Source: Candidatus Lloydbacteria bacterium RIFCSPHIGHO2_02_FULL_50_18 (lineage in GTDB: Bacteria > Patescibacteriota > Minisyncoccia > Phycocordibacterales > UBA6899). Taken from it: a stretch of 64,000 nt of DNA. The stretch spans positions 9,733 to 73,732 of the forward strand of contig MHLM01000006.1 of assembly GCA_001821395.1 (NCBI GenBank). The letters run 5' to 3'. The notes under the pieces were generated by a model, which had not been told where the DNA came from, did not search any database, and was given only the letters and a program-made list of their open reading frames with translations. Below, one piece after another: positions 1-29,342 of this stretch. The position numbers and the translations under genes are program-made. Position 1 is the stretch's first letter. Every line of letters starts with the position of its first letter.

Positions 1-2264
1 TCCCATATTTTACTTAAAACCGAGTAGTCCGCAGCATAGGCATCTCGTTTCTCGTCGGTATTTAAACAATCCTGAGCTAGCAAAAGGCCTTCATAGCCCA
101 CCACAGATCGGTCGATGCCATGAAAATGACCGAGGCAAGTATTAACTGCTCCCTGAAGCTCATTTTTTAACTCGTTGAGATTTGTGATTACATACCGAAC
201 ACTGGCATCGTCAAACTCGAGAGCTTTTGCAACATCATCGAATACGCCAAAATAATCCACGACTAATCCGTATGCCTTATCTTTATATACACGATTAGTG
301 CGGCAAATGGCCTGTAGAAGGTTGTGATCTTTTAGCGCCTTGTCGAGATACATACACTGGAGAATCGGCGCATCAAACCCTGTAAGTAATTTAGCAGTAA
401 CGATCAAAAACTTAAGAGGATGCTCAGGATCCCGGAAGTTGTCGAGAAGTTTTTCCTGGTCTTCCTTGCTCATCTCATACTTCTGCTTAAGCATGGTGTC
501 TGTTTCGCCCTTGCCGCCCGTTGAGATGACCACCGCACTTGCTTCCGGAGGTAAAATCTTATCAAGTTCTTGCTTATAGAGGTCACAGGCGTATCTGTCA
601 GGAGTTACGATTTGGGCCTTAAAGCCCTGCGAATCAATTTTTTCTTGAAAATGTTTTACAACATCTTTAACGATTGTCTCAATGCGAGCAGGAGATTTAA
701 GAAAAGCAGACATCTTTGCCGCTTCCTTTACCAAGCTCGTTCGATCGTCTTCTGAAAGATGTTCTGTCATCTGGTCGAATTCAGCATCAATCAAGTCTCT
801 GTCAACGTGAACATTCAATAGGCGCGGTTCGAAGTGCAGAGGGAGTGTTGCCTTGTCGCGAATTGAATCCTGAAAAGTATATCGGGTCATGTAACCCTGA
901 TCATCTTCTTCGGCACCAAATGCCCAGAACGTGTTTCTTTCTGTTTTGTTGATAGGGGTACCAGTCAGACCAAATAGGAATGCGTTCGGCAGGGCATCGC
1001 GCATTTTACGACCAAGATCACCCTCTTGTGTGCGATGAGCCTCATCTACCAAGACAATGATGTTTTCTCGTTCATTAAGCACGCCTCCAGCCTCAGCAAA
1101 TTTAAAAATGGTAGTTATAATAATCTTTCTCGTATCCTTGTTTAAGAGATCGTGGAGTTCTGATCGTTTATCTGTTGACACAACATTTGGTATCTCTGTT
1201 GCGTTGAAAGTTCCTGTAATTTGAGTATCCAAATCGACTCGATCAACCACAACGAGAACGGTGGGGCTTTTTAATTCTTGAGATCGACGGAGCTTCTGCG
1301 CTGCAAATACCATCAATAGTGACTTACCAGATCCTTGAAAATGCCAAATGAGTCCCTTCTTCGGCCTACCCGCCTTTACGCGCTCAATGATCAGGTTTGC
1401 GCCCTCCATCTGTTGGTAGCGGGCTATTATTTTTATCCGCTGCTTTCGCTTGTCTGTCGCAAAGAGCGTGAAGTTTTGAAGCAAGTCCAAAACAACTCCT
1501 GGATCAAGTGCTCCGGAAATCGCTTGTTTAATTTCAGAAAGACCCGCAATGGCACCTTTTGAGTCACGCCAAGGCCCCCACAACTCGAGCGGCATACGAA
1601 TTGAGCCGTAACGGAATGTTTTACCCTCGGTTGCAAACGAAAACACATTTGGAACAAATAGTTGCGGGATTGTATTTTCGTAATCGTCGTGAATATCGAT
1701 CGCGCCGTCGAGCCAAGAAATAGAGGGGCGCACGGGTGTCTTAAATTCTCCCACGACGAGCGGAATTCCATTAACCAACATCACCAAATCGGGACGTTTC
1801 TCAGCCTTGCCTTGAACGGTGTACTGATTTGTGACAATGTATGTATTTTTCCCCAAGCTATCGAAATCAATAAAACTGATCGAAACGTGCTCATTATTTT
1901 CGCCAAACGGCATTGTCTTGTCACCACGGAGCCACGCAGAAAATTCTTCGTTCGCTCTAACGAGACCGGATGTTCCGACCGAGAGAAAGATCGCTCGTAT
2001 TTTATATAAAACTTCGTCGGCTTTATTGGGGTCAGCTGCAATATCCGGATTAAGACGAATCAGAGCGTCTTTTAATAGCGACTCAACGATTGCATCTTTG
2101 GCTTCGCGCTTGAGTTGAGAGGAGGGAACGTATTGCCACTTCAAACCAGGGTGAAAAGCACTATCTGGGGCAAGATAGTTTGAATCCTGCATAAGCTCCG
2201 GGCTTATGCCGGTAAGTTCGTTCAAGATAAAGTGTTCGGTTGTATTTATTTCGTTAAATTTCAT
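1..2264 (-). CDS. hsdR: Type I restriction endonuclease R subunit HsdR (partial; C-terminus lies beyond window start)
   Basis: Manual minus-strand translation from ATG at 2264 (ATGA overlap with hsdS stop) stays open to nt 1. N-terminus MKFNEINTTEHFILNELTG. Helicase motifs WHFQGSGKS (Walker A), IVLVDEAHRTQ (DEAH), GLTGTP, QAICRTNR (motif VI). Frame checked at several points. Missing from the supplied ORF track only because no stop codon falls inside the window. Confidence 0.8.
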   Translation of the reverse strand, partial: MKFNEINTTEHFILNELTGISPELMQDSNYLAPDSAFHPGLKWQYVPSSQLKREAKDAIVESLLKDALIRLNPDIAADPNKADEVLYKIRAIFLSVGTSGLVRANEEFSAWLRGDKTMPFGENNEHVSISFIDFDSLGKNTYIVTNQYTVQGKAEKRPDLVMLVNGIPLVVGEFKTPVRPSISWLDGAIDIHDDYENTIPQLFVPNVFSFATEGKTFRYGSIRMPLELWGPWRDSKGAIAGLSEIKQAISGALDPGVVLDLLQNFTLFATDKRKQRIKIIARYQQMEGANLIIERVKAGRPKKGLIWHFQGSGKSLLMVFAAQKLRRSQELKSPTVLVVVDRVDLDTQITGTFNATEIPNVVSTDKRSELHDLLNKDTRKIIITTIFKFAEAGGVLNERENIIVLVDEAHRTQEGDLGRKMRDALPNAFLFGLTGTPINKTERNTFWAFGAEEDDQGYMTRYTFQDSIRDKATLPLHFEPRLLNVHVDRDLIDAEFDQMTEHLSEDDRTSLVKEAAKMSAFLKSPARIETIVKDVVKHFQEKIDSQGFKAQIVTPDRYACDLYKQELDKILPPEASAVVISTGGKGETDTMLKQKYEMSKEDQEKLLDNFRDPEHPLKFLIVTAKLLTGFDAPILQCMYLDKALKDHNLLQAICRTNRVYKDKAYGLVVDYFGVFDDVAKALEFDDASVRYVITNLNELKNELQGAVNTCLGHFHGIDRSVVGYEGLLLAQDCLNTDEKRDAYAADYSVLSKIW

Positions 2265-3406
2265 GTAATTACTTGAGTGAGGATTGCGTTTCGCATCGCC
2301 CTCGTTAGTTCGATAGAATTTTGCAACTGCTTCTTGATCTCCGTAAGTTGAGCAAGGTTCCTGAGAATATCTTTTTGCTTCTCGAGAGTAGGAACATAGA
2401 TTTTATACTCGGAAACAATCTTATGAGATATGCGAGGCATCTTTGTCCCAAACCCCAGGGAAACAGCATAGTGAATGAAACCATCAGAGTGTAGGTGGTG
2501 GAGAACGTATTCAATGTCTATATCAGGCGTTGCATCATACACAAGCAATTCCGTTGTACAGACTCCATCAAATGATGGAATAACAGCCTTATCCAAATTG
2601 GGGCGTAGCTTGCTATAGAGCAATTGCCCGCTTTTGAAGACGTTGCAAGAGGACTGTGATTGTTGAGCGTCGCCATAAGCATCTACATTAAACGACCCTG
2701 GTTCAATATGCTCCAAACCTAAGTATTTCTCAAGTTTGTGTGGCGGAGCACTCTTCATCTTTGAAAGTTTTAAACATTCGCCTAGTTTTTTCCTGTCTAG
2801 TTTATTCTTAGTGAGTTCAGCAAAAATTGTCTTGAGTGTCAAATTTATTTTGTCCGCCGCGATTCTGTATTTCTCTTCCAATTGATCTGACGCTATCAAA
2901 AGACCCAGTATTTTCTTCTGTACCTGACGGGGTGGCAGAAGAAATTTCTGTTGCGCAAGAATTTTCCATTTAATGGTCGGTGAAAGTGAGCCTTCAGAGA
3001 TATCTATCGCCCGATTCATAAATGCGTCAGAATGCATAAAGAATGGAAGAAAATCTGGTTCAATATGGGATGAATCTGCGCGGACGACCATCGCATGTGC
3101 GGAGCAAATTCCATCAAACTCTGCTATGGAGGCTTTTCTCTGGTATGCACGCCGTTTCCCAAAGATTATGTCCCCTTTATATACACGAAGCTTGACGCCT
3201 TTTACATCAGACGGCACGCCGAATCGACGGATGTGAATAGAGTCGGAATCTAGATGTTCAAGACCAACATAAATATCGGCATCGGAACTGTTCGGGTCAA
3301 CCCTTTCAGAGATATTCTTCGCTATATCACCAAACTTAGCCAACTCCCAATCGGAGCGGTTATGTTTAACGAAAATATTTTCAGCTTGTTTATTAAGAGT
3401 TTTCAT
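2261..3406 (-). CDS. hsdS: Type I R-M specificity subunit HsdS (two TRD halves)
   Basis: 381-aa ORF between hsdM and hsdR. 14-nt overlap with hsdM and 4-nt ATGA overlap with hsdR. Two variable halves, each followed by a helical conserved spacer (..SDQLEEKYRIAADKINLTLKTIFAEL.. and ..LEKQKDILRNLAQLTEIKKQLQNSIELTRAM..). Confidence 0.75.
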   Translation of the reverse strand: MKTLNKQAENIFVKHNRSDWELAKFGDIAKNISERVDPNSSDADIYVGLEHLDSDSIHIRRFGVPSDVKGVKLRVYKGDIIFGKRRAYQRKASIAEFDGICSAHAMVVRADSSHIEPDFLPFFMHSDAFMNRAIDISEGSLSPTIKWKILAQQKFLLPPRQVQKKILGLLIASDQLEEKYRIAADKINLTLKTIFAELTKNKLDRKKLGECLKLSKMKSAPPHKLEKYLGLEHIEPGSFNVDAYGDAQQSQSSCNVFKSGQLLYSKLRPNLDKAVIPSFDGVCTTELLVYDATPDIDIEYVLHHLHSDGFIHYAVSLGFGTKMPRISHKIVSEYKIYVPTLEKQKDILRNLAQLTEIKKQLQNSIELTRAMRNAILTQVIT

Positions 3407-4880
3407 ATGTTTTTTTGTCTAACATCTCTAAGAGAGATCGGGATCCCCTTTTTAGGTCAGAACTATTCTGAGACCATTCCTCTACTACCACTCGGAGTCC
3501 TTTTTCTTTAATACCATTCCCTTGAGTAGATATGTAGAGCGGAATATTAAGATTTGCGTTATTGTTGAGGATATTTTGATTGTCGATCACTTTCGTAAAA
3601 TTTGGTATATCAATAAATTCCTTAAATGCTGCATGAATTCTTTCAACATGTGGATCTTCAAGAAAAGAAAAAGCATTCTGCCGCGTTACTTCTTTAACAG
3701 CATTTATAAAAAGTACTCTACCTTTTCGTTCTTTAGGTTTGTCCCAACGGCAAACCAACAAGCAGGCCTCCATGGGTGAGTTGTAAAATAGATTTGGGCC
3801 CAAACCGATGACTGCTTCGATTACGTCATCCTTTAGCATTTTTTCTCTGAACTCCCGCTCAGAATCACGAAAGAGAACCCCGTGAGGCCAAAGGACAATG
3901 CTCCGGCCGTTTTTCTTGTCTAGGCTTTTGAGAATATGCTGCTCAAAAGCATAGTCTGCACATCCTTGTGGAGGGGTGCCGTAAATGTTTCTCCCGTAAG
4001 GATCATTCGTCCACGCATCTCGATTCCACCTCTTAACTGAATACGGCGGGTTCGCAAGGATGACGTCGAAGGTTTTAAGTTTGTCGTCCTCCAAAAACTT
4101 TGGGCTAGACAATGTGTCTCCACGCTCAATATGAAAGTCCTCGATTCCATGAAGAAACATGTTCATTCGCGCGATGGAGGATGTCATCAGATTCAACTCT
4201 TGCCCATAGAGCTTAAGCGTTCGGTATTCTTTACTCTGGTCCTTAAGTTGGTTTACGCAGTTCAGTAATAACCCACCAGAACCACAAGTTGGATCGTATA
4301 CGCTCTCACCTGGCTGGGGGTTCATTATCAAGCTCATTAAACGAACGACCGTACGATTGGTGTAGAACTCAGCAGCTGTATGCCCACTATCATCTGCAAA
4401 CTTCTTGATAAGGAATTCATATGCATTACCAAGTTCGTCATTGGGAACATTGGCAATGCTTAGGTCTTGTTCAGAAAAATGTTCGAGTAGGTCTATTAGA
4501 ATCTCGTCAGATAGACGACTCTTGTTTGTCCAAGAGGCGTCGCCAAAAATACCGAATAAACGATCCTCGTTCGTCTTTTCAATTTTGCGGAGCGCCTTCT
4601 GTAGGGCATCCCCCACATTAACCGTCACCTGTCGAACATCATTCCAGTGTGCCCCTTTGGGAATTTGGAATCTATGATTTTCATCAAATTTTGCATATTC
4701 TTTGTCGCCCCCCGATTCATTGAGTGCCCGCTCGTATTCTTCTTTGTAGACATCACAGATGCGCTTATAAAATAATAAGGGGAAAATATATTGCTTGTAG
4801 TCTCCAGCATCAATGACACCACGAAGAAGTGTCGCCGCTCCCCAAAGATATCTTTCCAGTTCTTGTTTTTTAATAGCCAT
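3393..4880 (-). CDS. hsdM: Type I R-M N6-adenine DNA methyltransferase HsdM (copy 1, NPPY type)
   Basis: 495 aa. HsdM N-domain FPLLFYKRICD. AdoMet motif VYDPTCGSGGLLL. Catalytic motif ANPPYS. Confidence 0.9.
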   Translation of the reverse strand: MAIKKQELERYLWGAATLLRGVIDAGDYKQYIFPLLFYKRICDVYKEEYERALNESGGDKEYAKFDENHRFQIPKGAHWNDVRQVTVNVGDALQKALRKIEKTNEDRLFGIFGDASWTNKSRLSDEILIDLLEHFSEQDLSIANVPNDELGNAYEFLIKKFADDSGHTAAEFYTNRTVVRLMSLIMNPQPGESVYDPTCGSGGLLLNCVNQLKDQSKEYRTLKLYGQELNLMTSSIARMNMFLHGIEDFHIERGDTLSSPKFLEDDKLKTFDVILANPPYSVKRWNRDAWTNDPYGRNIYGTPPQGCADYAFEQHILKSLDKKNGRSIVLWPHGVLFRDSEREFREKMLKDDVIEAVIGLGPNLFYNSPMEACLLVCRWDKPKERKGRVLFINAVKEVTRQNAFSFLEDPHVERIHAAFKEFIDIPNFTKVIDNQNILNNNANLNIPLYISTQGNGIKEKGLRVVVEEWSQNSSDLKRGSRSLLEMLDKKTYENS

Positions 4881-4881
4881 A

Positions 4882-6369
4882 CTATTTTGATATCAGAGAA
4901 AACCCATCTAAGAGTCTTTTGAGTTCTGTCTCAGCCTCCCATACCTCCTCGAGAGAATTCTTCAACTCTTTCGTGGCCTCTTCTACTGACGGGAGTGTCT
5001 TACCTGAAATCTTTTCAATATAAAGAGAAATATTTAGGCTCCAATCATTTGCCGCAATGTCTTTGAGGGTTGCCACCACGGCGTGGTCTTTAACACCCTT
5101 GAACGCAGAGTACCAGTCGAAAATCTGATCAACATGCCTCTGCTCAAGATAATTTTGAGCACGATCCACGCGCACCTGGTCTGATGCGTCTATAAACAAA
5201 ACCTTACCTTCTTTGTTGTCAGGCTTATTAGCACGAAATACTAAAATGCATGCGGCAACTGTTGCTCCATAGAAGATATTAGGCCCAAGTCCTATCACTG
5301 CTTCAAGCGCATCTGTCTCTATTATTTTCTTTCTTATTTGTCCTTCTCGACCCTTGCGAAATAGTGCGCCATGAGGAAGAACCACGGCTATGCGTCCGCG
5401 AGGATAAGACATGGATTTGATCATGTGTTGCACCCACGCGTAATCTCCATAACCAGCTGGTGGTACCCCTGCAAAATTTCTACCGTATGGGTCCTGAATC
5501 CAAAGGTCATCACCCCACTTCTTTAGGGAGAAGGGTGGATTAGCAATAACGCAATCAAAGGTCGAAAGTTGATCGCCTTCATAGTATGCGGGACTTCGTA
5601 ATGTATCTCCACGCTGAATTTGGAAGTCCTGAACATCGTGGAGGAACATGTTCATGCGAGCAATGGATGAAGTGGTGAGGTTTTTTTCCTGTCCAAATAT
5701 TTTTAGAGTGCGGGCGTCCTTACCATGAGAGCGTAGGTGCTCAACACAATTGAGTAGCATGCCTCCCGTACCACAGGCTGGGTCATATACAGTCTCACCT
5801 TCTTTTGGATCAATTATACGGCCCATGAGCTGAACAACTGTTCTCGGTGTATAAAACTCCCCCGCTTTCTTGTTTGTTAAATCAGCAAACTTTTTTATGA
5901 GGTATTCGTATGCCTGACCGAGCATGTCGAGGTCGACCGTTCCGTTTGCCAGCTTGTATTCAGAAAAATGTTCAATAAGTTCCACCAATAAGCTGTCGGG
6001 CAACTTCTCCTTGTTGGTCCATTGTGCATCTCCAAAGATCCCATACAGAAAATCAGGATTGGCTTTTTCAATTTCACGAAATGCATACTGAAGCTTTGCT
6101 CCAACATTCTTTGTGGTGGCGCGCACATCTGCCCAATGACATCCATCAGGAATTATAAATCTATGGAATTCTGGCAAAACTGCGTAACCCTCATCGCCCT
6201 TAGATTCTTCTAATAGCTTTTTATATTCATCATCATAAACATCTGAAAGTCGTTTAAAAAACAGGAGTGGAAAAACATATACCTTAAAATCAGCAGCATC
6301 AACTGGCCCCTTGAGTATCCATGCGGCTTGAGCGAGATGTTGTTCGAGTTGTGGGAGTGTCAATTTCAT
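4882..6369 (-). CDS. hsdM: Second divergent HsdM paralogue (copy 2, NPPF type)
   Basis: 495 aa, colinear with copy 1. Shared blocks GIFGDAxWTNK, EYLIKKFAD, VYDPACGTGGMLL, SSIARMNMFLH, ANPPFS, LPHGALFR, EAVIGLGPNIFY. Roughly half the residues are identical by eye. 1-nt gap to copy 1. Confidence 0.9.
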   Translation of the reverse strand: MKLTLPQLEQHLAQAAWILKGPVDAADFKVYVFPLLFFKRLSDVYDDEYKKLLEESKGDEGYAVLPEFHRFIIPDGCHWADVRATTKNVGAKLQYAFREIEKANPDFLYGIFGDAQWTNKEKLPDSLLVELIEHFSEYKLANGTVDLDMLGQAYEYLIKKFADLTNKKAGEFYTPRTVVQLMGRIIDPKEGETVYDPACGTGGMLLNCVEHLRSHGKDARTLKIFGQEKNLTTSSIARMNMFLHDVQDFQIQRGDTLRSPAYYEGDQLSTFDCVIANPPFSLKKWGDDLWIQDPYGRNFAGVPPAGYGDYAWVQHMIKSMSYPRGRIAVVLPHGALFRKGREGQIRKKIIETDALEAVIGLGPNIFYGATVAACILVFRANKPDNKEGKVLFIDASDQVRVDRAQNYLEQRHVDQIFDWYSAFKGVKDHAVVATLKDIAANDWSLNISLYIEKISGKTLPSVEEATKELKNSLEEVWEAETELKRLLDGFSLISK

Positions 6370-6599
6370 TTTGGTGACGATGTCAGCTTTTCAACGGTAG
6401 TCCCCAGAGCTGTGGCAATTTTTACCATCGTTGCCACTCGGGGATCAGGAGTGAGTCCGCTCTCAATCTTCGCAATGGTGTGATAATCAAGGCCGGTTTT
6501 CGTAACCAGCTTGCTCTTAGACAATCGCTTTTCATTTCTAATTTTTCTCAAGTTTCCTGCGATATTTGAGAATTTTTTTGGGTGAGATTTCTTTTTCAT
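6366..6599 (-). CDS. XRE-family helix-turn-helix transcriptional regulator (first gene of the R-M operon; C-protein-like position)
   Basis: 77 aa. HTH_3 signature ..LSKSKLVTKTGLDYHTIAKIESG... 4-nt overlap with downstream hsdM copy 2. Divergent from the recombinase gene. Confidence 0.7.
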   Translation of the reverse strand: MKKKSHPKKFSNIAGNLRKIRNEKRLSKSKLVTKTGLDYHTIAKIESGLTPDPRVATMVKIATALGTTVEKLTSSPK

Positions 6600-6756
6600 A
6601 CGACAACCTTGCTTAGCATAATTATACCAAATTTATTGAGTTTTTGCTGCAATAAAAAGTGGATAAAAATAGGGCTATTTGAGGGATGGTTACCAACAGC
6701 TTACCAACTGACCCTCCCTGGACTCCCTGGGAGGGTTGCGTCATCAATTGGTGTGT

Positions 6757-8112
6757 ATGAAAAATACAAACCCGCTAGAGGGCTCTGACGAGCCGAAAAT
6801 TAAGTACTGTTTATACGCTAGAAAATCGAGCGAATCGGACGAGCAGCAAGCCCTTTCGATCGACTCCCAAGCCAAGGAGATGCTCCAGCTGGCGCAACGA
6901 GAGGGGCTTGATGTGGTCGACATCAAGCGCGAGTCGCACTCCGCAAAAAGCACCGGGCAACGCCCGGTCTTCAATGAGCTGATCAGCGACCTCAAGGAGG
7001 GCAAGTTTAATGCCATTCTCGCATGGCATCCGGATCGCTTAAGCAGAAATGCAGGCGACCTCGGTGCTATCGTCGACCTGATGGACGAGCACCGACTTAT
7101 CGAAGTGAGAACCTTTGGTCAAAAGTTTACAAATAGTCCAAGCGAGAAGTTTCTACTCATGATTCTATGCTCGCAAGCAAAGCTTGAGAACGACAACAAG
7201 GGCGTGAACGTGAAGCGGGGGCTACGAGCAAAAGTTGAGATGGGACTATGGCCATGCGTTGCACCGACCGGATACATCAACGACCGCATGCCTGGGCGTG
7301 CAGGATATGTGCTCGTCGACCCGGTGCGTGCTCCGATTATCAAGCAAATATTTGAAAAGGTCGGCAATGACCGATGGAGCGCTAGGACGGTTTATAAATG
7401 GATGGTCAAAGAAGGAAAGTTCAATAGCGTGAGAAAAGGAAATAAGGCACTCACCCTGAGCACAATCTATCGACTTCTGCATCAGCCTTTCTATTCGGGA
7501 ACATTCGAGTACCCCACCGGGAGCGGTAACTGGTACAAAGGTCAACATGAGCCACTCGTTTCCAAGGAACTCTTCGAGAAGGTGCAGCAAAAAATAGCGG
7601 AGGAGTTGAAGTCAAAGAAACAATATCAAGAATTCACCTTCACGAACCTTATGCTCTGCGGATACTGTGGGTCAGGTATTACCGCACAATCAAAAGACAA
7701 AAATCTCAAAGATGGGAGCGTCAAAAGTTACACCTACTACAACTGCACGCACAACAAGGATCACTTCTGCAAAAACCCGTTCATTCGCGAAGAAGAACTT
7801 CTCAAACAGATCGATGAGATCTTCGACAAGATCGATATCGACGAACTTGGAACACGGCATATCATTGAAAGAGAGGTTGCGCGATACAACAACATTCGGG
7901 CAAAACTCCTCGGCGCAAAAGAAAATGACAAAGCACTCGACGTCGACGTGCGAAACTATGCCAAGTACATGCTCAAAGAAGGCACGATGCTCGAAAAACG
8001 CGAACTCCTAGGGTGCCTAAAAAATAGAATTATTCTGAAGGATAAAACGATAACGCTTGAAAAAAGTTTGCAAATTAATGACTTAACGCCACAAACACAG
8101 ATAGCACGCTGA
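6757..8112 (+). CDS. Large serine recombinase (resolvase/invertase catalytic domain + recombinase domain + zinc-ribbon)
   Basis: Catalytic region KYCLYARKSSESDEQQALSIDSQ (Ser nucleophile context). Later AWHPDRLSRN. Cys cluster CGYCGS...YNCTHN. The track ORF starts at 6736; ATG 6757 (MKNTNP..) is more likely. Confidence 0.85.
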   Translation: MKNTNPLEGSDEPKIKYCLYARKSSESDEQQALSIDSQAKEMLQLAQREGLDVVDIKRESHSAKSTGQRPVFNELISDLKEGKFNAILAWHPDRLSRNAGDLGAIVDLMDEHRLIEVRTFGQKFTNSPSEKFLLMILCSQAKLENDNKGVNVKRGLRAKVEMGLWPCVAPTGYINDRMPGRAGYVLVDPVRAPIIKQIFEKVGNDRWSARTVYKWMVKEGKFNSVRKGNKALTLSTIYRLLHQPFYSGTFEYPTGSGNWYKGQHEPLVSKELFEKVQQKIAEELKSKKQYQEFTFTNLMLCGYCGSGITAQSKDKNLKDGSVKSYTYYNCTHNKDHFCKNPFIREEELLKQIDEIFDKIDIDELGTRHIIEREVARYNNIRAKLLGAKENDKALDVDVRNYAKYMLKEGTMLEKRELLGCLKNRIILKDKTITLEKSLQINDLTPQTQIAR

Positions 8113-8440
8113 GGATGACGAGTATCTTCACCCCACCTCCATACACAATCCAAGTAAATAATTTTTTTGCAGCAAGCATAACTATTCCGAGCACCAGAAT
8201 GGAAACTCCAACGCCCGTGAGTGGGTCGTGCAATCCTTTCATAGGAGCATGAGTCCAAACAAAAAATATACCTACGACAACCATAAGCCGCGCAATTATG
8301 TTAAACCAGCTTATGGAATCTTCGTGGCCAAAAGGAGCACCTCCTATGCCAACTTTCTTAGCAAAGAAGACACGAGTTACTGCTCCGGCAACACTTGCGA
8401 TAACACGAATTACTAACTGTTGGAAAAAACTCCCATCCAT
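8075..8440 (-). CDS. Small polytopic membrane protein (about 4 TM helices), last gene of the Ubl operon; candidate effector
   Basis: 121 aa. Hydrophobic segments LVIRVIASVAGAVTRVFFA, IIARLMVVVGIFFVW, GVGVSILVLGIVMLAA, VKILVILSVLSVFVALS. Start 1 nt after the JAB-E1 stop codon. Confidence 0.5.
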   Translation of the reverse strand: MDGSFFQQLVIRVIASVAGAVTRVFFAKKVGIGGAPFGHEDSISWFNIIARLMVVVGIFFVWTHAPMKGLHDPLTGVGVSILVLGIVMLAAKKLFTWIVYGGGVKILVILSVLSVFVALSH

Positions 8441-8441
8441 A

Positions 8442-9833
8442 CTATTTTAAGTTCTCATCAAAAACTTGATAACTATCATCATTTGAGTCTCCTTTTCCGG
8501 TAAATTCTGAGAATGGGCAATTTGGCAAGCAGTCTTCACCGAGTTTTCTTTCCAGCTCCCCGGTAACAAAATGGTATAGATTTTCACCGTGATGACTTAT
8601 GCCGTTGGGTTTTACTACAAGTGCCAACATCTGTAGCACCATCATTGAGGCGAGGTGCATGCTAAAAGCAAAAACGTTTTGATTGTTCAAGTGATGGCGC
8701 AAACCGTCAACGGTGTTTATGTACTCCGAATCATCCAGCAGACCTTTGCGTTCAAGAGACACTTCAGCAAAGGTGTACTGCCCAATGCACGAGAGACATT
8801 TATTACCCGGGGTTGCAGTGTGCGCACGCCAATCCGCTGAGCGCAACAAATCCTCCTTGGTGTGCACTCGAATACCACCATCAACGACTGGAATCAGGTG
8901 TGTATAAGCAATGTAATTAAGAACGTGGCGCGCCCACGGCCTATCAACGCAACTGAACAGGAGGTCACAATTTAGTGCACCTCGGTATCCCTCAGCTCCA
9001 GTTACATGAACTGGTAATCGTGTGACGAAAAAGTTGTCGGCAGTTGCGTGTTCAATAAGTCTTTTTGCAATTACATCCGTCTTCAATTCACCAACATCTT
9101 TTATCGTCGCATGCATAAGTCGATCGAGGTTGTGTTTCTTTACTACGTCAAAATCGATAAGCGAAATATGCTGAACTCCAGTTCTAGCAAGTGCCTCAGC
9201 AATAGCACTTCCGACACTTCCCGTGCCGACTATTCCTATGTGTAAACGAGATAATTCGTCTTGCTTATCTTGACCCCATGAAGAAATTGTACGTTTCAGT
9301 TCTTCTCTAAAACCCTGCGGCTTAAGCAGCGCGTCACAATAGGTGATAGAAAGGCCCATTTGACCTATAGTGCGAACACTCTCGCACCATGATGGAGCAT
9401 ATTCCCGAACCCCGGTTCTATTCCAAAAACGAGCACTCCACGCACCATCTGTGCCTATAGTTAGTCCAAGGAGGGGTCGTTCTGTTATTCCAAAGGTTGC
9501 CGCAGCGTGCGATAACTCCGCCCGAACATCGGTCCTGCTCATATTCTGCCATCCAGGAAACGGGTGGCTATGCATAAAAGCAAGGCCCATATCTCGGGCG
9601 GATGCTATTTGTAGTGCTCTCTGAAAATACTCGGGAGAAAAACTCGCGTTGCCATGCACTTCCCGCTCTCCGTCTTCAGGAAGAATCGGTTCAACCAAGA
9701 GTGCTGTCAGTCTTTCTCCTCCGCTGCTCGGCTGCCACAAAGCAAAACATAAGTCTTCCTGCCCATCCTTACGCACAAGATGAGAAAAGAGTTTCTGGTT
9801 TACCTCGGTTGTCATCGCTACGCTGTATCTCAT
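8442..9833 (-). CDS. JAB/MPN metallopeptidase fused to E1-like ThiF/MoeB adenylyltransferase
   Basis: N-terminal JAMM motif AFMHSHPFPGWQNMSRTD (HxH..S..D). C-terminal Rossmann/E1 motif GIVGTGSVGSAIAEALARTGVQHISLIDFDVVKKHNLDRL and Cys-containing CLSCIGQ. 4-nt overlap with the upstream gene. Confidence 0.8.
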   Translation of the reverse strand: MRYSVAMTTEVNQKLFSHLVRKDGQEDLCFALWQPSSGGERLTALLVEPILPEDGEREVHGNASFSPEYFQRALQIASARDMGLAFMHSHPFPGWQNMSRTDVRAELSHAAATFGITERPLLGLTIGTDGAWSARFWNRTGVREYAPSWCESVRTIGQMGLSITYCDALLKPQGFREELKRTISSWGQDKQDELSRLHIGIVGTGSVGSAIAEALARTGVQHISLIDFDVVKKHNLDRLMHATIKDVGELKTDVIAKRLIEHATADNFFVTRLPVHVTGAEGYRGALNCDLLFSCVDRPWARHVLNYIAYTHLIPVVDGGIRVHTKEDLLRSADWRAHTATPGNKCLSCIGQYTFAEVSLERKGLLDDSEYINTVDGLRHHLNNQNVFAFSMHLASMMVLQMLALVVKPNGISHHGENLYHFVTGELERKLGEDCLPNCPFSEFTGKGDSNDDSYQVFDENLK

Positions 9834-10192
9834 AGTGTGTTGAGGAGTTTTATAACGTGAGCAAGGTAAACATCGACGTTACGTTTACTACTTTCCCAGC
9901 TCGGGTGCGGCCTACTAAGATGCATCCACTCAGGGCCAAAATCACTGTCGTGAATTCGATCACGATGCTCCTGTGATGAGGTGTTGGTGGGCAACGTACG
10001 CGGATGAATATGTGGGCCGTGGGGAGCAGTCAGCTCAAAGTCTCCTGGGACATCTACCCCAACGCGAACTGTCTTGCCTGCAAGAGTTCCTTCGTTGACA
10101 GACAGCGCAAATGCCAGCCGATTGCCTTCAAGGTTTTCAACCTCAAAACCAAGATTCTTGAGACCTTGAATAAATTTTTCTTTGCCGCTCAT
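9830..10192 (-). CDS. UBC/UEV-like protein lacking any cysteine (putative non-catalytic E2 variant; identity uncertain)
   Basis: 120 aa. Segment VRVGVDVPGDFELTAPHGPHIHP resembles the UBC beta-meander plus HPN-motif region. No Cys anywhere in the protein. Starts 6 nt after the Ubl stop. Confidence 0.45.
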   Translation of the reverse strand: MSGKEKFIQGLKNLGFEVENLEGNRLAFALSVNEGTLAGKTVRVGVDVPGDFELTAPHGPHIHPRTLPTNTSSQEHRDRIHDSDFGPEWMHLSRPHPSWESSKRNVDVYLAHVIKLLNTL

Positions 10193-10197
10193 GTTGT

Positions 10198-10452
10198 TTA
10201 CCCCACAGGCGTTTGTCCAGTAAACACCGTGACGAACTTCATGTGATTATGCATCTTGATCACCTCGTCCAAATCTTTATGCGGTTCCTGCTGATGACCC
10301 TTAACCTCAACCAAATAGTACTGCTGCGAATCGACATTCGCCATTGATAATATCTCTCGAACAGACAACTCCTTCTTTTCAGTAGTGAGTGTTTCACCGT
10401 CGACCGTAAAATCGATACCGTGACCTTTTTCCTCCTTCTCGTGGTTTTCCAT
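10198..10452 (-). CDS. ThiS/MoaD-like ubiquitin-like beta-grasp protein ending in ...TPVG-COOH
   Basis: 84 aa. Beta-grasp pattern IDFTVDGETLTTEKKELSVREIL ... KFVTVFTGQTPVG followed by stop TAA. No C-terminal extension after the terminal Gly. Confidence 0.6.
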   Translation of the reverse strand: MENHEKEEKGHGIDFTVDGETLTTEKKELSVREILSMANVDSQQYYLVEVKGHQQEPHKDLDEVIKMHNHMKFVTVFTGQTPVG

Positions 10453-10501
10453 ACAGTTTTTTTATATAATTAATGAATTAACACATGAACCAATATTCCT
10501 C

Positions 10502-10530
10502 TTGACTCTGGACGAGAGTCGCGGTAACCT
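10502..10530 (+). promoter_or_regulatory. Putative promoter of the HTH gene (TTGACT-17-TAACCT) with embedded operator palindrome GACTCTGGACGAGAGTC
   Basis: Read directly. -35 at 10502-10507, -10 at 10525-10530. Palindrome 10504-10520. A second near-palindrome TGTTTCACTAGTCAAACA at 10562-10579. Confidence 0.35.
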
Positions 10531-10591
10531 GTTTCATATGTAAGACAGTGTACACCTGAGGTGTTTCACTAGTCAAACACTTTTTTCATTT

Positions 10592-10942
10592 ATGAAACAC
10601 AATAAAAACAGCGTCAATTTTGCTATTGAGCAATTGGGTCAGAAGGTCGCGCTTAAAAGATCGGGAAGCGGGATGAGAGATACCTCCGCAGAGATTGGCA
10701 TCAGCCCTGCTACCCTCTCGCGAATCGAGAGGGGGTACATGCCCGATATCGGCACATTCCAAAAAGTATGCACTTGGCTCAACATTGATCCGGGTGAAAT
10801 TCTTGGTGCAAAAACTCACGTCAGTGAGGTGCAGATGGCAACTGTGCATTTTCGTAAGAAGCAAACGGTTGCTCCGGAAACCGCGCAAGCTTTAGCACAA
10901 CTCATTATTGCAGTACAAAATAATGTTCTCGCATCAGAGTAA
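10592..10942 (+). CDS. XRE-family HTH regulator (CapH-like), divergent from the Ubl operon
   Basis: 116 aa. HTH ..DTSAEIGISPATLSRIERGYMPD.. Confidence 0.8.
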   Translation: MKHNKNSVNFAIEQLGQKVALKRSGSGMRDTSAEIGISPATLSRIERGYMPDIGTFQKVCTWLNIDPGEILGAKTHVSEVQMATVHFRKKQTVAPETAQALAQLIIAVQNNVLASE

Positions 10943-10960
10943 AAAACTGATTATGTTGTC

Positions 10961-11539
10961 ATGTTTAAAAAAGGATTTAAAACCTGGTGTGAAAGAGCTT
11001 CAATTAGTACTCGCAGACAACTGGGTCTGCAATCTTTCGATCCGATAGACTTATACAAGGTCGCGGCAATCGTCGAGGCTGATATTAAGTATCCAAAAGA
11101 TGTTCCTGGGCTTGATAAAAAGTTTTTAAAAATTTTAACGGAGGAGGACCCAGATAGCTGGTCTGCAATAACCATAAAAATAAAACAGAAAATCGTTATT
11201 ATTCTAAACTCTGCCCACACCAAAGCGCGTCAGATGAGTAGTCTTGGTCATGAGTTATCTCATTTGATTATCGGACACCCTGCGTCCAAAACTGGTATTT
11301 CAGCAGATGGGCTTTTGATAACTGGGTTCGATCGACTTCAAGAGGATGAGGCGGGATGGCTTTCGGGGTGTCTTCTTTTGCCCCATGATGCGTGTCAGTA
11401 TATTAAAAAGACAAAGATGGACCAAAGCAGTGCTCAACGACATTACGGAATAAGCGCTGATATGTATACATATCGCATGAACGCCTCTGGGGTAAATCGC
11501 TTGTGGACCCCTAAAGTAAGTAGCATTAAAGCGAAGTAA
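10961..11539 (+). CDS. ImmA/IrrE-family zinc metallopeptidase (CapP-like)
   Basis: 192 aa. VIILNSAHTKARQMSSLGHELSHLIIGH (HExxH in ImmA context). Follows the HTH gene with 18-nt spacing. Confidence 0.8.
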   Translation: MFKKGFKTWCERASISTRRQLGLQSFDPIDLYKVAAIVEADIKYPKDVPGLDKKFLKILTEEDPDSWSAITIKIKQKIVIILNSAHTKARQMSSLGHELSHLIIGHPASKTGISADGLLITGFDRLQEDEAGWLSGCLLLPHDACQYIKKTKMDQSSAQRHYGISADMYTYRMNASGVNRLWTPKVSSIKAK

Positions 11540-11613
11540 CGACCTATCAGGTCTAGAACCTTTAATGCCAAAAAGCGACCCTTCTGGGTCGCCTCTTGGG
11601 TCTCTGCGTCGGG

Positions 11614-11686
11614 GGTGCCTATAGGGAATCGAACCCTAGCTAAAGGCTCCACAAGCCTCTGTGCTAACCGCTACACCATAGGCACC
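11614..11686 (-). tRNA. tRNA-His (anticodon GUG) with encoded G-1 and C73
   Basis: Manual fold of the reverse complement GGTGCCTATGGTGTAGCGGTTAGCACAGAGGCTTGTGGAGCCTTTAGCTAGGGTTCGATTCCCTATAGGCACC. Acceptor GTGCCTA/TAGGCAC. G-1 pairs with C73. Anticodon loop TTGTGGA. T-loop TTCGATT. Confidence 0.85.
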
Positions 11687-11878
11687 ATGCATAAACCAAA
11701 CTCACACAACGACCACACTACTTTTTCACGTCATGATGTGGACCATGAACGAAAACGCACCTTGCGGTGCTGACTAGGATAATAACAGACTTTCAAAAAA
11801 AATCAACGTCACGCCAGTCTTCGGTTCTCCCCGTTAAAAACAGAAGAAAGGCCCCATGGCAGGAGGCCTTCTGATAAC

Positions 11879-12346
11879 TCACACGACGTGTTCGATGATG
11901 ACCCTTCGATGAAGCGTGACGCGGTCTCCCGCCGAGAGCGAAAGTCCGTAGTGATTGAGGGCAAAATAATCACTGCTCTCTTTTGCATCAGCACCATACA
12001 CCCGCACTGCGATCTTTTTTTGAGAGCACGCAACCAACACCACACCATGAAGCACTCGGCAGTCCCCTTCGTGCCCGTGATGATGACGCCAGAACAAGGT
12101 TATGGTCTCTTTTGTCCACGGAGATTTCCCTTGTTGACCGGCAAACGCAAAAAGACCGCGCGTCGCATCTGCAAAACATTCCATGAGCAGGGCCTGTTCG
12201 GGATCGCCATTCTCTTCGATGAGTTTTTGGAGTGTTGCGACATGCTCCTCCTTTATCAGCCCCCGAGAAAAACGGTCGTCCGTACAAACATATGCATAGC
12301 GCAGAAAAAGCTGCTCTCCCGTCAGTAAGGTCATAATGTTCTCCAA
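11879..12346 (-). CDS. Hypothetical protein (weak resemblance to the YfcE-type metallophosphoesterase C-terminal half)
   Basis: 155 aa. WRHHHGHEGDCRVLHGVVLVACS loosely resembles the GHTH..NPGS region. Low confidence. Confidence 0.3.
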   Translation of the reverse strand: MENIMTLLTGEQLFLRYAYVCTDDRFSRGLIKEEHVATLQKLIEENGDPEQALLMECFADATRGLFAFAGQQGKSPWTKETITLFWRHHHGHEGDCRVLHGVVLVACSQKKIAVRVYGADAKESSDYFALNHYGLSLSAGDRVTLHRRVIIEHVV

Positions 12347-12390
12347 AGTGCTACCTGTGCGGAGTATAGCAAAAGAATATTGGAACGCAA

Positions 12391-12909
12391 TTAAAACTTA
12401 CGGCTATCGTAAGCCCAATGCAAAAGTGCTTGACGCTGGCGGGGACGACAGAAAATATCTCCGGCACGACAGTTATTGCGTACCTGCGCGATGTGCCGCG
12501 TCATCGCCTTCCAGCGCTTGATCTGTCGGGTGTCTTCTATTGGAATACGCCGACCAATATAATACCGACAATACCACTGAAACCAACCGCGCGGATCGTC
12601 GTCGTAGATCCAGCCTTTTGCTTTCCATACGGCAAGTGATTGAGAGGCGTGCACACCAAAATAATTCAATGACTTATCCGCCTTTCCTTTTGCGAGTCTT
12701 GCGCCCTTCCACCACGATGCAGGAAATTCATCAGTGCAGTCACGCATATACTTTCCACCAAAGACACCGAGTGCGAGCATCTCGCGAGGTGTGAGGTCGG
12801 GCTTAAAGAGAGGATCAAAATCCTTTCCCACGAGCGCCGTACACGTGTAGTGATAGTTATGCTGCATAGTGTCATGGACAACTATCATTCTTGTTTCTCC
12901 ACTCTTCAT
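12391..12909 (-). CDS. Conserved hypothetical protein (Trp-rich; no family recognised)
   Basis: 172-aa ORF with protein-like composition (..WKAKGWIYDDDPRGWFQWYCRYYIGRR..). Confidence 0.45.
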   Translation of the reverse strand: MKSGETRMIVVHDTMQHNYHYTCTALVGKDFDPLFKPDLTPREMLALGVFGGKYMRDCTDEFPASWWKGARLAKGKADKSLNYFGVHASQSLAVWKAKGWIYDDDPRGWFQWYCRYYIGRRIPIEDTRQIKRWKAMTRHIAQVRNNCRAGDIFCRPRQRQALLHWAYDSRKF

Positions 12910-12919
12910 AATTGTATGA

Positions 12920-13483
12920 TCAATAGCGAGGTTGTTCTTCCTTCACATCCCCGCGATGATTTGCCAATCGCGCGAGTGCGTAGAGCAGAGATGAAAGTCG
13001 ATTCATGTATTGAAACATCGGAGGGTGAAGCGCGGGGTCGGCGATATTAAGTGCGCACACAACACGACGTTCAGCGCGCCGTGCGACCGTCCGTGCGAAA
13101 TCACATAATGCCGCAAGCTTCGTTCCTCCGGAAACAAAGAACGAAGTGATGGGTGACAGCTCGCCCTCGATCAGCCCGATCCATTCCTCCAGTTTTTTGA
13201 CACGTGTAATATCCATCTTTTTGTCTGCTCCGGCAAGTTCTGCTTGAATAACAAAGAGGTCTTGCTGAACGAGCGATAAGAGCTGCTGATAATTAAGACC
13301 GTCTGTCGCAATGGTATTTCCTCCCGCTAATTTTACAATACCCAACAGTGAGTTAATCTCATCAACCGTTCCGAGTGCTTCGGCAATATCCGAACTTTTT
13401 GCGATGCGTTGATCGCAACCAAACAGCTGCGTCGTACCGTTATCACCTTTTCCCGTGAATAGCATGTTCATAGTATAAGACAA
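12920..13483 (-). CDS. PduO-type ATP:cob(I)alamin adenosyltransferase family protein
   Basis: N-terminal signature LFTGKGDNGTTQLFG (compare YTKTGDKGTTSL of PduO/MMAB-type adenosyltransferases). 187 aa. Confidence 0.7.
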   Translation of the reverse strand: MSYTMNMLFTGKGDNGTTQLFGCDQRIAKSSDIAEALGTVDEINSLLGIVKLAGGNTIATDGLNYQQLLSLVQQDLFVIQAELAGADKKMDITRVKKLEEWIGLIEGELSPITSFFVSGGTKLAALCDFARTVARRAERRVVCALNIADPALHPPMFQYMNRLSSLLYALARLANHRGDVKEEQPRY

Positions 13484-13552
13484 CGTTAACCTTTTGACGA
13501 AAGCAGCCCCACGAGATAGAGTGGCGGAAGATCATCAGGAAAGGAGTTCGTC

Positions 13553-14179
13553 ATGGCGCTTCCTTCTCAAGCCAAAGCAGCTTGCTACCAAAAAACGCTT
13601 CCGATCGGTGCCTTTCTTTTTCTTTTTCAAATAGCGATCCTTATCTGGATCGTGTTCAGCCGTACTCTTGGTGCGGACACGTTTCATGCACTGCTTGACG
13701 TCCTTACGCTTGCAGGCACGACATATTTATTCCAACGAAACTGGAAGACGGAAGAAGAGTTCGAACGATACGAACATCGATGGCTCCTAATCGGTGTCAT
13801 CTCGCTCGGATTGGGGGGTATCATGGTTGGACTCGAATCTGCCTCCTGCCTGCTCAGAGGAACGGCCTCAACACCTCCTCCCGCGTGGCCGCTCCTTATT
13901 GCGGCACTCGTGGGTGCACTCGGAAATTGGCGCATGCACCACCTCCTCGAATCGGTCGAGGACGCCGAGCACGACCACCTGCACAAGAACAACCTCGATC
14001 ACGTATTCTGGGATATGATTCTATCATTCGCGGTCTTTTGCTCCGGCTGTTCGATGCTGCTCTTTGCAACGAGTGCGGTCGACGGTTGGATCGCCACGGT
14101 CGTTGGCTTCATCGTTCTCCCCTATCTTGCACTGAAGCGATGGAAAGAGGGGACTCATGAACACGCGCATCATCACTAG
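13553..14179 (+). CDS. Membrane protein, cation-diffusion-facilitator-like TM domain with His-rich C-terminus
   Basis: 208 aa, about 5-6 TM. HALLDVL (HxxxD) in a TM segment. C-terminus EGTHEHAHHH. Overlapping His/Arg-rich ORFs on other frames treated as spurious. Confidence 0.45.
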   Translation: MALPSQAKAACYQKTLPIGAFLFLFQIAILIWIVFSRTLGADTFHALLDVLTLAGTTYLFQRNWKTEEEFERYEHRWLLIGVISLGLGGIMVGLESASCLLRGTASTPPPAWPLLIAALVGALGNWRMHHLLESVEDAEHDHLHKNNLDHVFWDMILSFAVFCSGCSMLLFATSAVDGWIATVVGFIVLPYLALKRWKEGTHEHAHHH

Positions 14180-28589: not shown

Positions 28590-29060
28590 CTACTCGTCAT
28601 CAGAAAATTCTTCCTGCAGTTTTGGGAAATGTTTATCCAAATAACTCTGCAGGATGATGGCCGCAGCCGACGCATCATTTTGGGGATTATCCCCCTGCAA
28701 ATGCATTGCTTCCCGGGAAGAAAGCACTTCGTTCATAAGAAAAATGGGGAGCGACGTCGTCGTCTTCAACTGTCCCATGAACACGCCGATCTTTTTCATG
28801 ATCGGATTCGGTAGATTCTGAAAATTCAACGACTCACCAATAACGATGGCATCAATGTGTTCCTTTTGACAAATAGCAACAATATCCTCGATCAAGGAGT
28901 GAGTATTCAAGATGACGCACAAAGGAAAGGCCATCGTTCCCCCATCTGGGGCAACCGCAAGCCCAACGCGCTTTGTTCCAAAATCAATACCTAAATATTT
29001 CATCTCTACACAGTAGCGCACGTTCTCTGAGGGCACAACGTGATGAGTTTCGGTGAGCAA
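28590..29060 (-). CDS. ruvX: Holliday-junction resolvase-like RuvX/YqgF
   Basis: MKYLGIDFGTKRVGLAVA motif. Probable start at 29003. Confidence 0.8.
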   Translation of the reverse strand: MLTETHHVVPSENVRYCVEMKYLGIDFGTKRVGLAVAPDGGTMAFPLCVILNTHSLIEDIVAICQKEHIDAIVIGESLNFQNLPNPIMKKIGVFMGQLKTTTSLPIFLMNEVLSSREAMHLQGDNPQNDASAAAIILQSYLDKHFPKLQEEFSDDE

Positions 29061-29123
29061 TCAAGCAAAGCGCTCTCCTTTGACTAATCAAAATGGCGCC
29101 ACATGGCGCTCATTTTTAACGGG

Positions 29124-29210
29124 CGGAGGAGGTGAGATTCGAACTCACGGTCCACTTACATGGACGACGGTTTTCAAGACCGTTGCCTTAAACCACTCAG
29201 CCACTCCTCC
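29124..29210 (-). tRNA. tRNA-Ser (anticodon UGA)
   Basis: Reverse complement GGAGGAG...CTCCTCC acceptor. Anticodon stem-loop ACGGT-CTTGAAA-ACCGT. Long variable arm. T-loop TTCGAAT. 87 nt. Confidence 0.85.
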
Positions 29211-29342
29211 CTTATTGCACTCAGCCTCTCTTTCTAAATCGAACGAAACGCACAAATTCATTCGTGCTCATCACTATACTGAAAAATAGATAATTGGCAA
29301 AAGATCAATGTGGTATTGCTAATTCTTTTTTAATCGGAGCGC

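Follow-up and report, generated by a model that had tools for sequence, protein, structure and literature searches.

A stretch of 64,000 nucleotides (nt) from Candidatus Lloydbacteria bacterium RIFCSPHIGHO2_02_FULL_50_18, called "the window" at its full length, was analyzed with a focus on an operon at window positions 1–6599. As far as the window shows, these positions contain a complete Type I restriction-modification (R-M) operon of the PacII-like class, in which one methylase subunit modifies adenine to N6-methyladenine (m6A) and a second one modifies cytosine to N4-methylcytosine (m4C). We put the probability of this reading at about 0.88. The two-methylase Type I system itself is an ordinary further member of a class that has already been described, and the cassette formed by the leading XRE-family gene and its promoter is the only mildly novel element.

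Organization of the operon

The open reading frame (ORF) listing yielded five minus-strand genes that are transcribed in one direction in the order XRE, HsdM-NPPF, HsdM-NPPY, HsdS, and HsdR. The two HsdM proteins are denoted M1 (NPPF) and M2 (NPPY), and TRD stands for target recognition domain. The features are as follows:

6366 to 6599, minus strand: XRE-family helix-turn-helix gene, 77 amino acids (aa), leads the operon, predicted HsdC/C-protein-like autorepressor
4882 to 6369, minus strand: hsdM1, NPPF-type, 495 aa, predicted N6-adenine methyltransferase (M1)
3393 to 4880, minus strand: hsdM2, NPPY-type, 495 aa, predicted N4-cytosine methyltransferase (M2)
2261 to 3406, minus strand: hsdS, specificity subunit with two TRDs, 381 aa, matching Methylase_S in two stretches
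2912 to 3352, minus strand: TRD1 of HsdS (aa 19–165), predicted to read the cytosine (CCC-type) half-site and to position M2
1 to 2264, minus strand: hsdR, N-terminal 754 codons as an open frame, with the C-terminal part beyond the window start

Little or no space separates the genes. The XRE gene and hsdM1 overlap by 4 nt (6366–6369), hsdM1 and hsdM2 are separated by a single nucleotide (4881), hsdM2 and hsdS overlap by 14 nt (3393–3406), and the stop codon of hsdS lies in a 4-nt overlap with the ATG start codon of hsdR (2261–2264). The ORF listing together with Pfam and NCBIfam matches confirmed the gene set, the gene order, and all four junction values that had been given in a preliminary description of this DNA. 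Each HsdM consists of HsdM_N and N6_Mtase, and the XRE protein matches HTH_3 (E=1.3e-8, Pfam). The hsdR frame contains HSDR_N, SWI2_SNF2, and T1R_D3 (Pfam) and matches the NCBIfam model TIGR00348 for hsdR with E=9.5e-161. It also includes a PD...ExK nuclease motif as well as GSGKS and DEAH motifs, and its homologues in related loci are 57–87% identical. The gene arrangement and the motifs are not a chance pattern.

The published m4C/m6A class

Ten Type I systems with two methyltransferases were characterized by Morgan et al. in 2016, and more than 300 two-methylase systems were present in REBASE already at that time (PMC5100572). In this class, the NPPF family (M1) makes m6A and the NPPY family (M2) makes m4C, the M1 and M2 of one system are 45–55% identical, and the gene order is M1 upstream, M2 adjoining S, and R downstream (PMC5100572). 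The N-terminal TRD1 of the S subunit reads the cytosine half-site, for which only CCC, GCC, or TCY have been seen, and the pocket loop N-S-P-M-E was pointed out as specific for M2 (PMC5100572). Experiments with PacII, BceNI, Mma5219I, and DbaKI revealed that both M subunits are required, and M2 plus S without M1 is inactive in PacII-type systems (PMC5100572).

The crystal structure of PacII M1M2S on DNA was solved by Zhu et al. in 2022 (7VRU/7VS4; PMC9613975), and the methylase of the PacII class is a heterotrimer of M1, M2, and S (PMC5100572, PMC9613975). The same study added the AGEF motif of M1, the AAEF motif of M2, and R29 of M2 to the distinguishing features, and it established that assembly starts with the binding of M1 to S, followed by the recruitment of M2 (PMC9613975). 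The bases are contacted by R75, R76, and H94 of TRD1. In M2, F180 within the AAEFYTNR motif stacks on the flipped cytosine, and R410 contacts the distal motif, entering the minor groove of that half-site. In vitro, PacII M2 also methylates adenine if adenine is presented (PMC9613975). The proposal of a heterodimeric M-M' methylase in the preliminary description was therefore right in its idea, but it corresponds to biology that had already been established by Morgan et al. (2016) and Zhu et al. (2022) and is not novel.

The two HsdM paralogues and their relation to PacII

The two HsdM proteins of the window were 55% identical over 424 aligned residues in BLASTP (E=2e-174) and 49% identical over the full length in a MAFFT alignment, which bears out the earlier estimate of about 50%. 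The motifs VYDPTCGSGG/ANPPYS and VYDPACGTGG/ANPPFS that had been recorded before are both present. The M1 product contains ANPPFS and KKAGEFYTPR, and the M2 product contains ANPPYS, TAAEFYTNR, and FYNSPME as well as R20, the equivalent of PacII R29. The difference between NPPF and NPPY had thus been seen in the preliminary description, but its meaning, the division into m6A and m4C subunits, had been missed. All sequence hallmarks of the m4C/m6A Type I class are present.

A PDB sequence search assigned each subunit to its counterpart. The best match of M1 was PacII M1 (7vru_A, E=8.5e-159), ahead of M2, the best match of M2 was PacII M2 (7vru_B, E=1.2e-189), ahead of M1, and the best match of HsdS was S.PacII (7vru_C, E=1.1e-66), with the likeness concentrated in TRD1. 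The identities to PacII are 52% for M1, 57% for M2, and 65% for TRD1. Nearly all PacII residues with a mutational phenotype have been retained. For M2, these are R29, D33/D36/K38, R130, K167/K168/H175, F180, NPPY, S289/K291/R346, F373, and N375–E379 (PacII numbering, also in the following). For M1, they are D25, E170/F171, R252, N276/F279/S280, R336, and R401, of which E170, F171, R252, and R401 correspond to E171, F172, R253, and R403 in the window. In the S subunit, the base-contact residues R75/R76/H94 (R85/R86/H104 in the window), the TRD1 backbone contacts Y78/Q79/K81, and the M2-interface residues N121/E128/K136 are all conserved.

The operon therefore shares with the PacII class the order M1(NPPF)-M2(NPPY)-S-R, an M1/M2 identity of about 50%, the motif pairs AGEF/AAEF and NPPF/NPPY, the NSPME loop, and a conserved TRD1 with identical base-contact residues. 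It differs from the class in its host, which belongs to the candidate phyla radiation (CPR), and in being led by an XRE gene. Furthermore, there are no ORFs between M1 and M2, whereas inserts are present in 6 of the 10 characterized systems (PMC5100572). In comparison with PacII itself, R410 of M2 has been replaced (N402 in the window), and TRD2 is unrelated, so that the adenine half-site is expected to differ.

Distribution and origin of the M1/M2 pair

Relatives were searched with an M2 alignment in a set with one genome per species and with M1 in metagenomes. The M2 scan yielded at least 588 relatives and the metagenome scan at least 585. Among the matches listed, the hosts of M2 relatives include Bacteroidota, Proteobacteria, Verrucomicrobiota, Planctomycetota, Chloroflexota, Saccharibacteria, and a Methanoperedens archaeon. 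For 160 loci the surrounding DNA was fetched (loci carry L numbers below). M1 precedes M2 in all loci with sufficient flanking sequence, and S and R usually follow M2, often with inserted genes, as described previously (PMC5100572). In three of the closest relatives (L001, L082, L087), hsdR is inverted and convergent with hsdS, as opposed to the overlap in the window. The inverted hsdR must have its own promoter there, and the 21-nt block that is described below is absent from it.

The type-specific motifs were nearly invariant in the related loci. The M1-type genes have NPPF in 143 of 145 cases and AGEFYTPR in 144 of 145, and the M2-type genes have NPPY and AAEFYTNR in 131 of 131 cases each and NSPME in 116 of 131. 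A neighbor-joining tree of 47 M1/M2 pairs, including that of the window, resulted in a clean bipartition into 47 M1 and 47 M2 proteins, with one window gene on each side. The window proteins are 60–84% identical to their own type elsewhere, but only 47–55% to the other type. Because the M1s and the M2s form two clean clades, the pair is the product of one old duplication that is common to hundreds of systems. In summary, the gene content and order, the motifs, the homology, and their conservation were all observed directly in this analysis.

Predicted specificity and mechanism

The residues at the three PacII contact positions were counted among 117 related TRD1s. Only a few classes were found, namely RRH (43), RRD (40), RRT (17), RNH (8), RND (7), and RNK (2), which fits the small repertoire of m4C half-sites. 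The TRD1 of the window (GKRRAYQRKA/CSAHAMV) belongs to the RRH class, which it has in common with PacII (CCC), and TRD1 together with the first coiled-coil spacer can be aligned to PacII without any change in length. TRD2, the variable domain in this class, aligns only weakly with PacII. As the three base-contact residues of PacII TRD1 have been kept, the cytosine half-site is predicted to be CCC, and the predicted target is C(m4C)C-N5/6-(adenine half-site).

The following mechanism can be proposed. HsdS would bind a bipartite target, with the N-terminal TRD1 reading the CCC half-site and presenting its central cytosine to the NPPY subunit M2 (3393–4880), which would convert it to N4-methylcytosine. 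The C-terminal TRD2 would read the second half-site, offering an adenine of the opposite strand to the NPPF subunit M1 (4882–6369) for conversion to N6-methyladenine. M1 would bind S first and recruit M2, leading to an asymmetric M1-M2-S methylase, and together with HsdR an ATP-dependent translocating endonuclease would be formed that cuts DNA without both marks. Most likely, the 77-aa XRE protein would bind the dyad over the extended -10 element and repress the whole packed operon in the manner of HsdC, as discussed below. The subunit roles and the order of assembly in this scheme are carried over from the PacII literature and may apply here; the CCC half-site and the autorepression by the XRE protein are our inferences.

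The leading XRE gene

The occurrence of the XRE gene was analyzed with tblastn. A homologue is located directly before M1 in all 8 loci with an M1 at least 81% identical to that of the window, and none was detected among the 160 loci in M1M2 systems with an M1 of 70% identity or less. The idea that the XRE gene is a family-wide component of M1M2 systems was thus rejected, as it was found in the closest clade only. In the other M1M2 clades, different genes directly precede M1 (133 evaluable loci). They encode RadC-like JAB proteins in 9 loci (in the range L088–L096, L100), HTH_17/AlpA proteins in 6 loci (L048, L049, L127, L132, L136, L159), ParE-like toxins in 4 loci (L106, L107, L145, L146), a protein of about 390 aa without Pfam match in 3 loci (L059, L063, L095), and members of an XRE family unrelated to that of the window in 3 further loci (L008, L015, L067).

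A search of 5.8 billion proteins revealed 62 clusters homologous to the window XRE, and for at least 24 of these the longest contigs are identical in size to those of close M2 homologues. The family is the first gene in at least five R-M architectures. These are the M1M2SR system, a single-M Type I system, systems of a ResIII/SWI2_SNF2 protein (R) with an M-S fusion, a Type III-like Mod/Res pair, and a Dam-like methyltransferase; the non-M1M2 systems are represented by L163/L164, L165/L166, L167, L168, and L169. The XRE gene always lies directly before an R-M gene on the same strand, with the 4-nt overlap in the window and with a gap of at most about 25 nt in the relatives. Against the PADLOC models, the protein gave a weak though significant match to Control_protein (E=9.3e-6), but HTH_VI scored better (2.8e-7), and capH was similar.

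The promoter and a putative operator

Upstream of the XRE gene, a conserved block was identified:

6609 to 6630, minus strand: conserved promoter and putative operator block TTGGTATAATTATGCTAAGCAA, an extended -10 element overlapped by an imperfect dyad

The extended -10 element is TGgTATAAT, with TATAAT at 6626–6621. The dyad over it reads TTGGTAT-N4-ATGCTAA in the window and TTGGTAT-N4-ATRCTAA across the relatives. The 21-nt block (TGGTATAATNATRCTARGCAA, 6609–6629) occurs once in the window (0.01 expected). Across 10 upstream regions that otherwise cannot be aligned (mean column identity 47%), the block has 20 invariant columns. Of the 16 loci with an XRE homologue of the window family, 15 have a single copy of it about 30 nt ahead of the XRE start codon, and L168 has a variant. 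It was found nowhere else in 169 loci and is not present in L086, the XRE of which is 39% identical; there, two perfect 14-bp inverted-repeat arms flank the -10 element, each with GTAT-N4-ATAC.

The XRE promoter was not listed by a scan for consensus promoters. An assignment as TTGCAG-17-TATAAT was rejected because the spacer is in fact 20 nt, so that there is no good -35 element in the window; in the relatives, a TnGA -35-like element is found at 17 nt. Neither a GACT...AGTC pair, the classical C-box, nor a repeated TAGCTA is present at the promoter, and the GTAT/ATAC-type motif has no counterpart in the C-box motif catalogue of Sorokin et al. (PMC2632904). The motif GTAT-N4-ATRC has 11 matches in the window (both strands, palindromes counting twice) versus 2.55 expected, with other sites at 43670, 48786, 57603, and 61849 and also at 5902 and 43759; four perfect palindromes exist in the window. 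With regard to further XRE sites, this excess is uninformative, since these six do not resemble the block and none is located in a clear promoter. The extra sites, one of which is the loop of a terminator-like hairpin, are probably unrelated.

Comparison with known regulators

Regulators in first position of a Type I operon are not new in principle, and two precedents exist. HsdC, a homologue of C proteins, is encoded first in the hsdC-hsdMSR operons of Mollicute Type I systems and binds over the -10 element and the transcription start site (TSS) (PMC5282649). The window XRE is likewise a small XRE-type helix-turn-helix protein encoded first in an hsd operon, with a strong extended -10 element and a predicted binding site over the -10/TSS. 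This position of the predicted site argues for autorepression, as in HsdC. The two systems differ in that the HsdC site is a direct repeat, (GTGTTAN5)2, and the putative site here is one imperfect dyad, and a close sequence relationship between HsdC and the window XRE is not established. RptR, described in E. coli, is a repressor of defence islands with Type I R-M systems in Gammaproteobacteria (Zhang et al. 2025, PMC12255303). Like the window XRE, it is a small protein (about 9 kDa) whose gene leads a Type I operon, and regulator and site are conserved together. As is predicted for the XRE, it represses its own promoter via sites over the -10 element. However, RptR is a four-helix bZIP-like protein that acts on 6-bp TAGCTA palindromes, whereas the window XRE is an HTH_3/XRE protein, and no chain recognizable as RptR was found at E<=1 in a PDB sequence search with it.

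The C proteins of Type II systems (C.AhdI, C.PvuII, C.Esp1396I) are also small proteins of the XRE fold that are encoded by the first gene and are co-transcribed with restriction genes. The classical C-box is a double operator (GACT...AGTC) that precedes a weak promoter dependent on activation by the C protein (PMC2632904). In contrast, the operon of the window has a consensus extended -10 element, no C-box, and the methylase genes inside the operon. With the putative site lying over a strong extended -10 element, simple autorepression is more plausible than the activator/repressor switch of the Type II C-boxes. The earlier view of the XRE as a controller was reasonable, and it is backed by the association with several R-M types and by the conserved promoter block, but the evidence favors autorepression instead of a C-box switch. 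The accompanying remark that a C protein is unusual for Type I was likewise correct; in view of HsdC and RptR, however, such an arrangement is not unprecedented.

As the XRE family and the block head at least five R-M architectures, the XRE is probably an HsdC-like autorepressor of the whole operon. We also propose, tentatively and at somewhat less than even odds, that the XRE gene and the 21-nt block form a portable, self-contained controller cassette that has been recombined before at least five unrelated R-M architectures.

Alternative explanations

Two tandem full-length hsdM genes of equal size (495 aa) alongside only one S gene and one R gene could also be a fossil of merged or partly deleted systems that share one S and one R, as had been considered before, or a recent tandem duplication without specialization. 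Such an origin is extremely improbable. The M1-then-M2 order recurs across Bacteroidota, Proteobacteria, Verrucomicrobiota, CPR, and an archaeon, the two window proteins fall into separate clades and are much closer to their own type than to each other's, the type-specific motifs are fixed, and PacII, BceNI, Mma5219I, and DbaKI need both subunits (PMC5100572). A different question is whether M2 is a catalytically inert scaffold and the complex methylates adenine only. The NPPY copy has a P-to-N change in the conserved (A/G)EFYTPR motif (FYTNR versus FYTPR), M2 and S alone are inactive in PacII-type systems, and PacII M2 methylates presented adenine in vitro. However, what looks like a defect is, by all sequences compared, the M2 hallmark AAEFYTNR, invariant in the active m4C subunits and identical in PacII M2. 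Moreover, no defect is visible in motif I, NPPY, or the NSPME pocket loop of M2, and TRD1 is of the cytosine-reading PacII type. An inert M2 is therefore very unlikely.

The XRE might not be an R-M controller at all, but the regulator of a mobile element (e.g., of a serine recombinase), an antitoxin-like protein, or an unrelated gene. A large serine recombinase gene adjoins it (6736–8112, plus strand), recombinase homologues flank many XRE-led cassettes, the best PDB match is the antitoxin HigA, and most M1M2 systems lack a window-type XRE. We nevertheless regard this as unlikely, because the XRE always stands directly before a same-strand R-M gene, and because the recombinase is absent from L001, L081, L083, L167, L168, and L169 and has either orientation where it is present. 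In addition, no toxin partner is present, and the conserved block is the XRE/R-M promoter itself.

Several points weigh against the interpretation of the operon as a complete, XRE-repressed PacII-like system. HsdR is cut by the window edge, and the visible frame ends at residue 754. PacII M2 R410 is N402 here, the one loss among the PacII residues for which mutation has a phenotype, and an arginine is found two residues earlier (R400). The prediction of CCC comes from one characterized reference, PacII, and the m4C modification, the recognition sequence, and the restriction activity of the Lloydbacteria system are all inferred from sequence. As to the regulator, the dyad is imperfect, with 5 of 7 matches in the window and 6 of 7 in most relatives, and no covariation between its arms was found when it was looked for, the left arm being fixed by the -10 element. 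The conserved block could also be a promoter plus a short 5' leader that were inherited together with the gene. The XRE is only weakly similar to characterized C proteins (C.AhdI, E=0.035), and its HigA match has E=3.7e-5.

Genomic context

Two further features were annotated at the R-M operon:

6736 to 8112, plus strand: large serine recombinase (Resolvase, Recombinase, Zn_ribbon_recom), immediately next to the XRE promoter
11611 to 11686, minus strand: tRNA-His, inner edge of the island

In a GC profile of positions 1–14000, the R-M operon had values of 0.40–0.46, versus 0.48 or more (0.48–0.54) beyond 11.5 kb. A low-GC operon near tRNA-His fits a horizontally acquired island that was integrated near a tRNA gene. 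Homologues of the recombinase with 44–64% identity border related R-M cassettes (L002, L007, L082, L084/85, L087, L161/162, L165/166), also at loci that lack the XRE, and they occur in both orientations. It is therefore possible that the R-M operon moves as part of a recombinase-borne cassette. In the interval that separates the recombinase gene from the XRE promoter, the conserved stretch GACGCAACCCTCCCAGGGAGTCCAGGGAGGGTCAGTTGGTAA (about 6690–6745) contains an AGTCC core and a short G/C hairpin. Only loci with a recombinase divergent from the XRE share this stretch (the window, L082, L084/85); it is distinct from the XRE block and may represent an att site or the promoter of the recombinase.

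Further inward, a ubiquitin-like conjugation operon (8442–10452, minus strand) encodes a 463-aa ThiF/E1 protein (PADLOC E1-E2 models), a 120-aa ORF without family match that is possibly E2-like, and an 84-aa Multi_ubiq protein. It adjoins a divergent pair of an XRE protein and an M78 peptidase (10592–11539, plus strand) that is CapH/CapP-like, and together they look like a second defence system in the island. Elsewhere in the window, ARAGORN reported a "tmRNA*" at 28596–29216 (minus strand) that overlaps a tRNA-Ser (29122–29210). With Rfam at the gathering threshold only the tRNA was found; the tmRNA is probably a false call, or else a permuted form.

Implications

The finding of a further two-methylase system matters little in itself, as the class was defined in 2016, its structure was solved in 2022, and relatives exist in at least 588 species genomes. 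It has a value for annotation, in that the NPPY gene is to be labelled as an N4-cytosine methyltransferase subunit. A C(m4C)C-N5/6-[m6A half-site] motif is predicted for the methylome of the host. The XRE-led operon adds to the small number of Type I systems that are transcriptionally controlled, and the XRE together with the 21-nt block looks like a reusable R-M regulator module in poorly studied bacteria. If the proposed cassette is real, it would represent an undescribed family of R-M controllers in CPR and other uncultured bacteria that operates by simple autorepression of a strong promoter.

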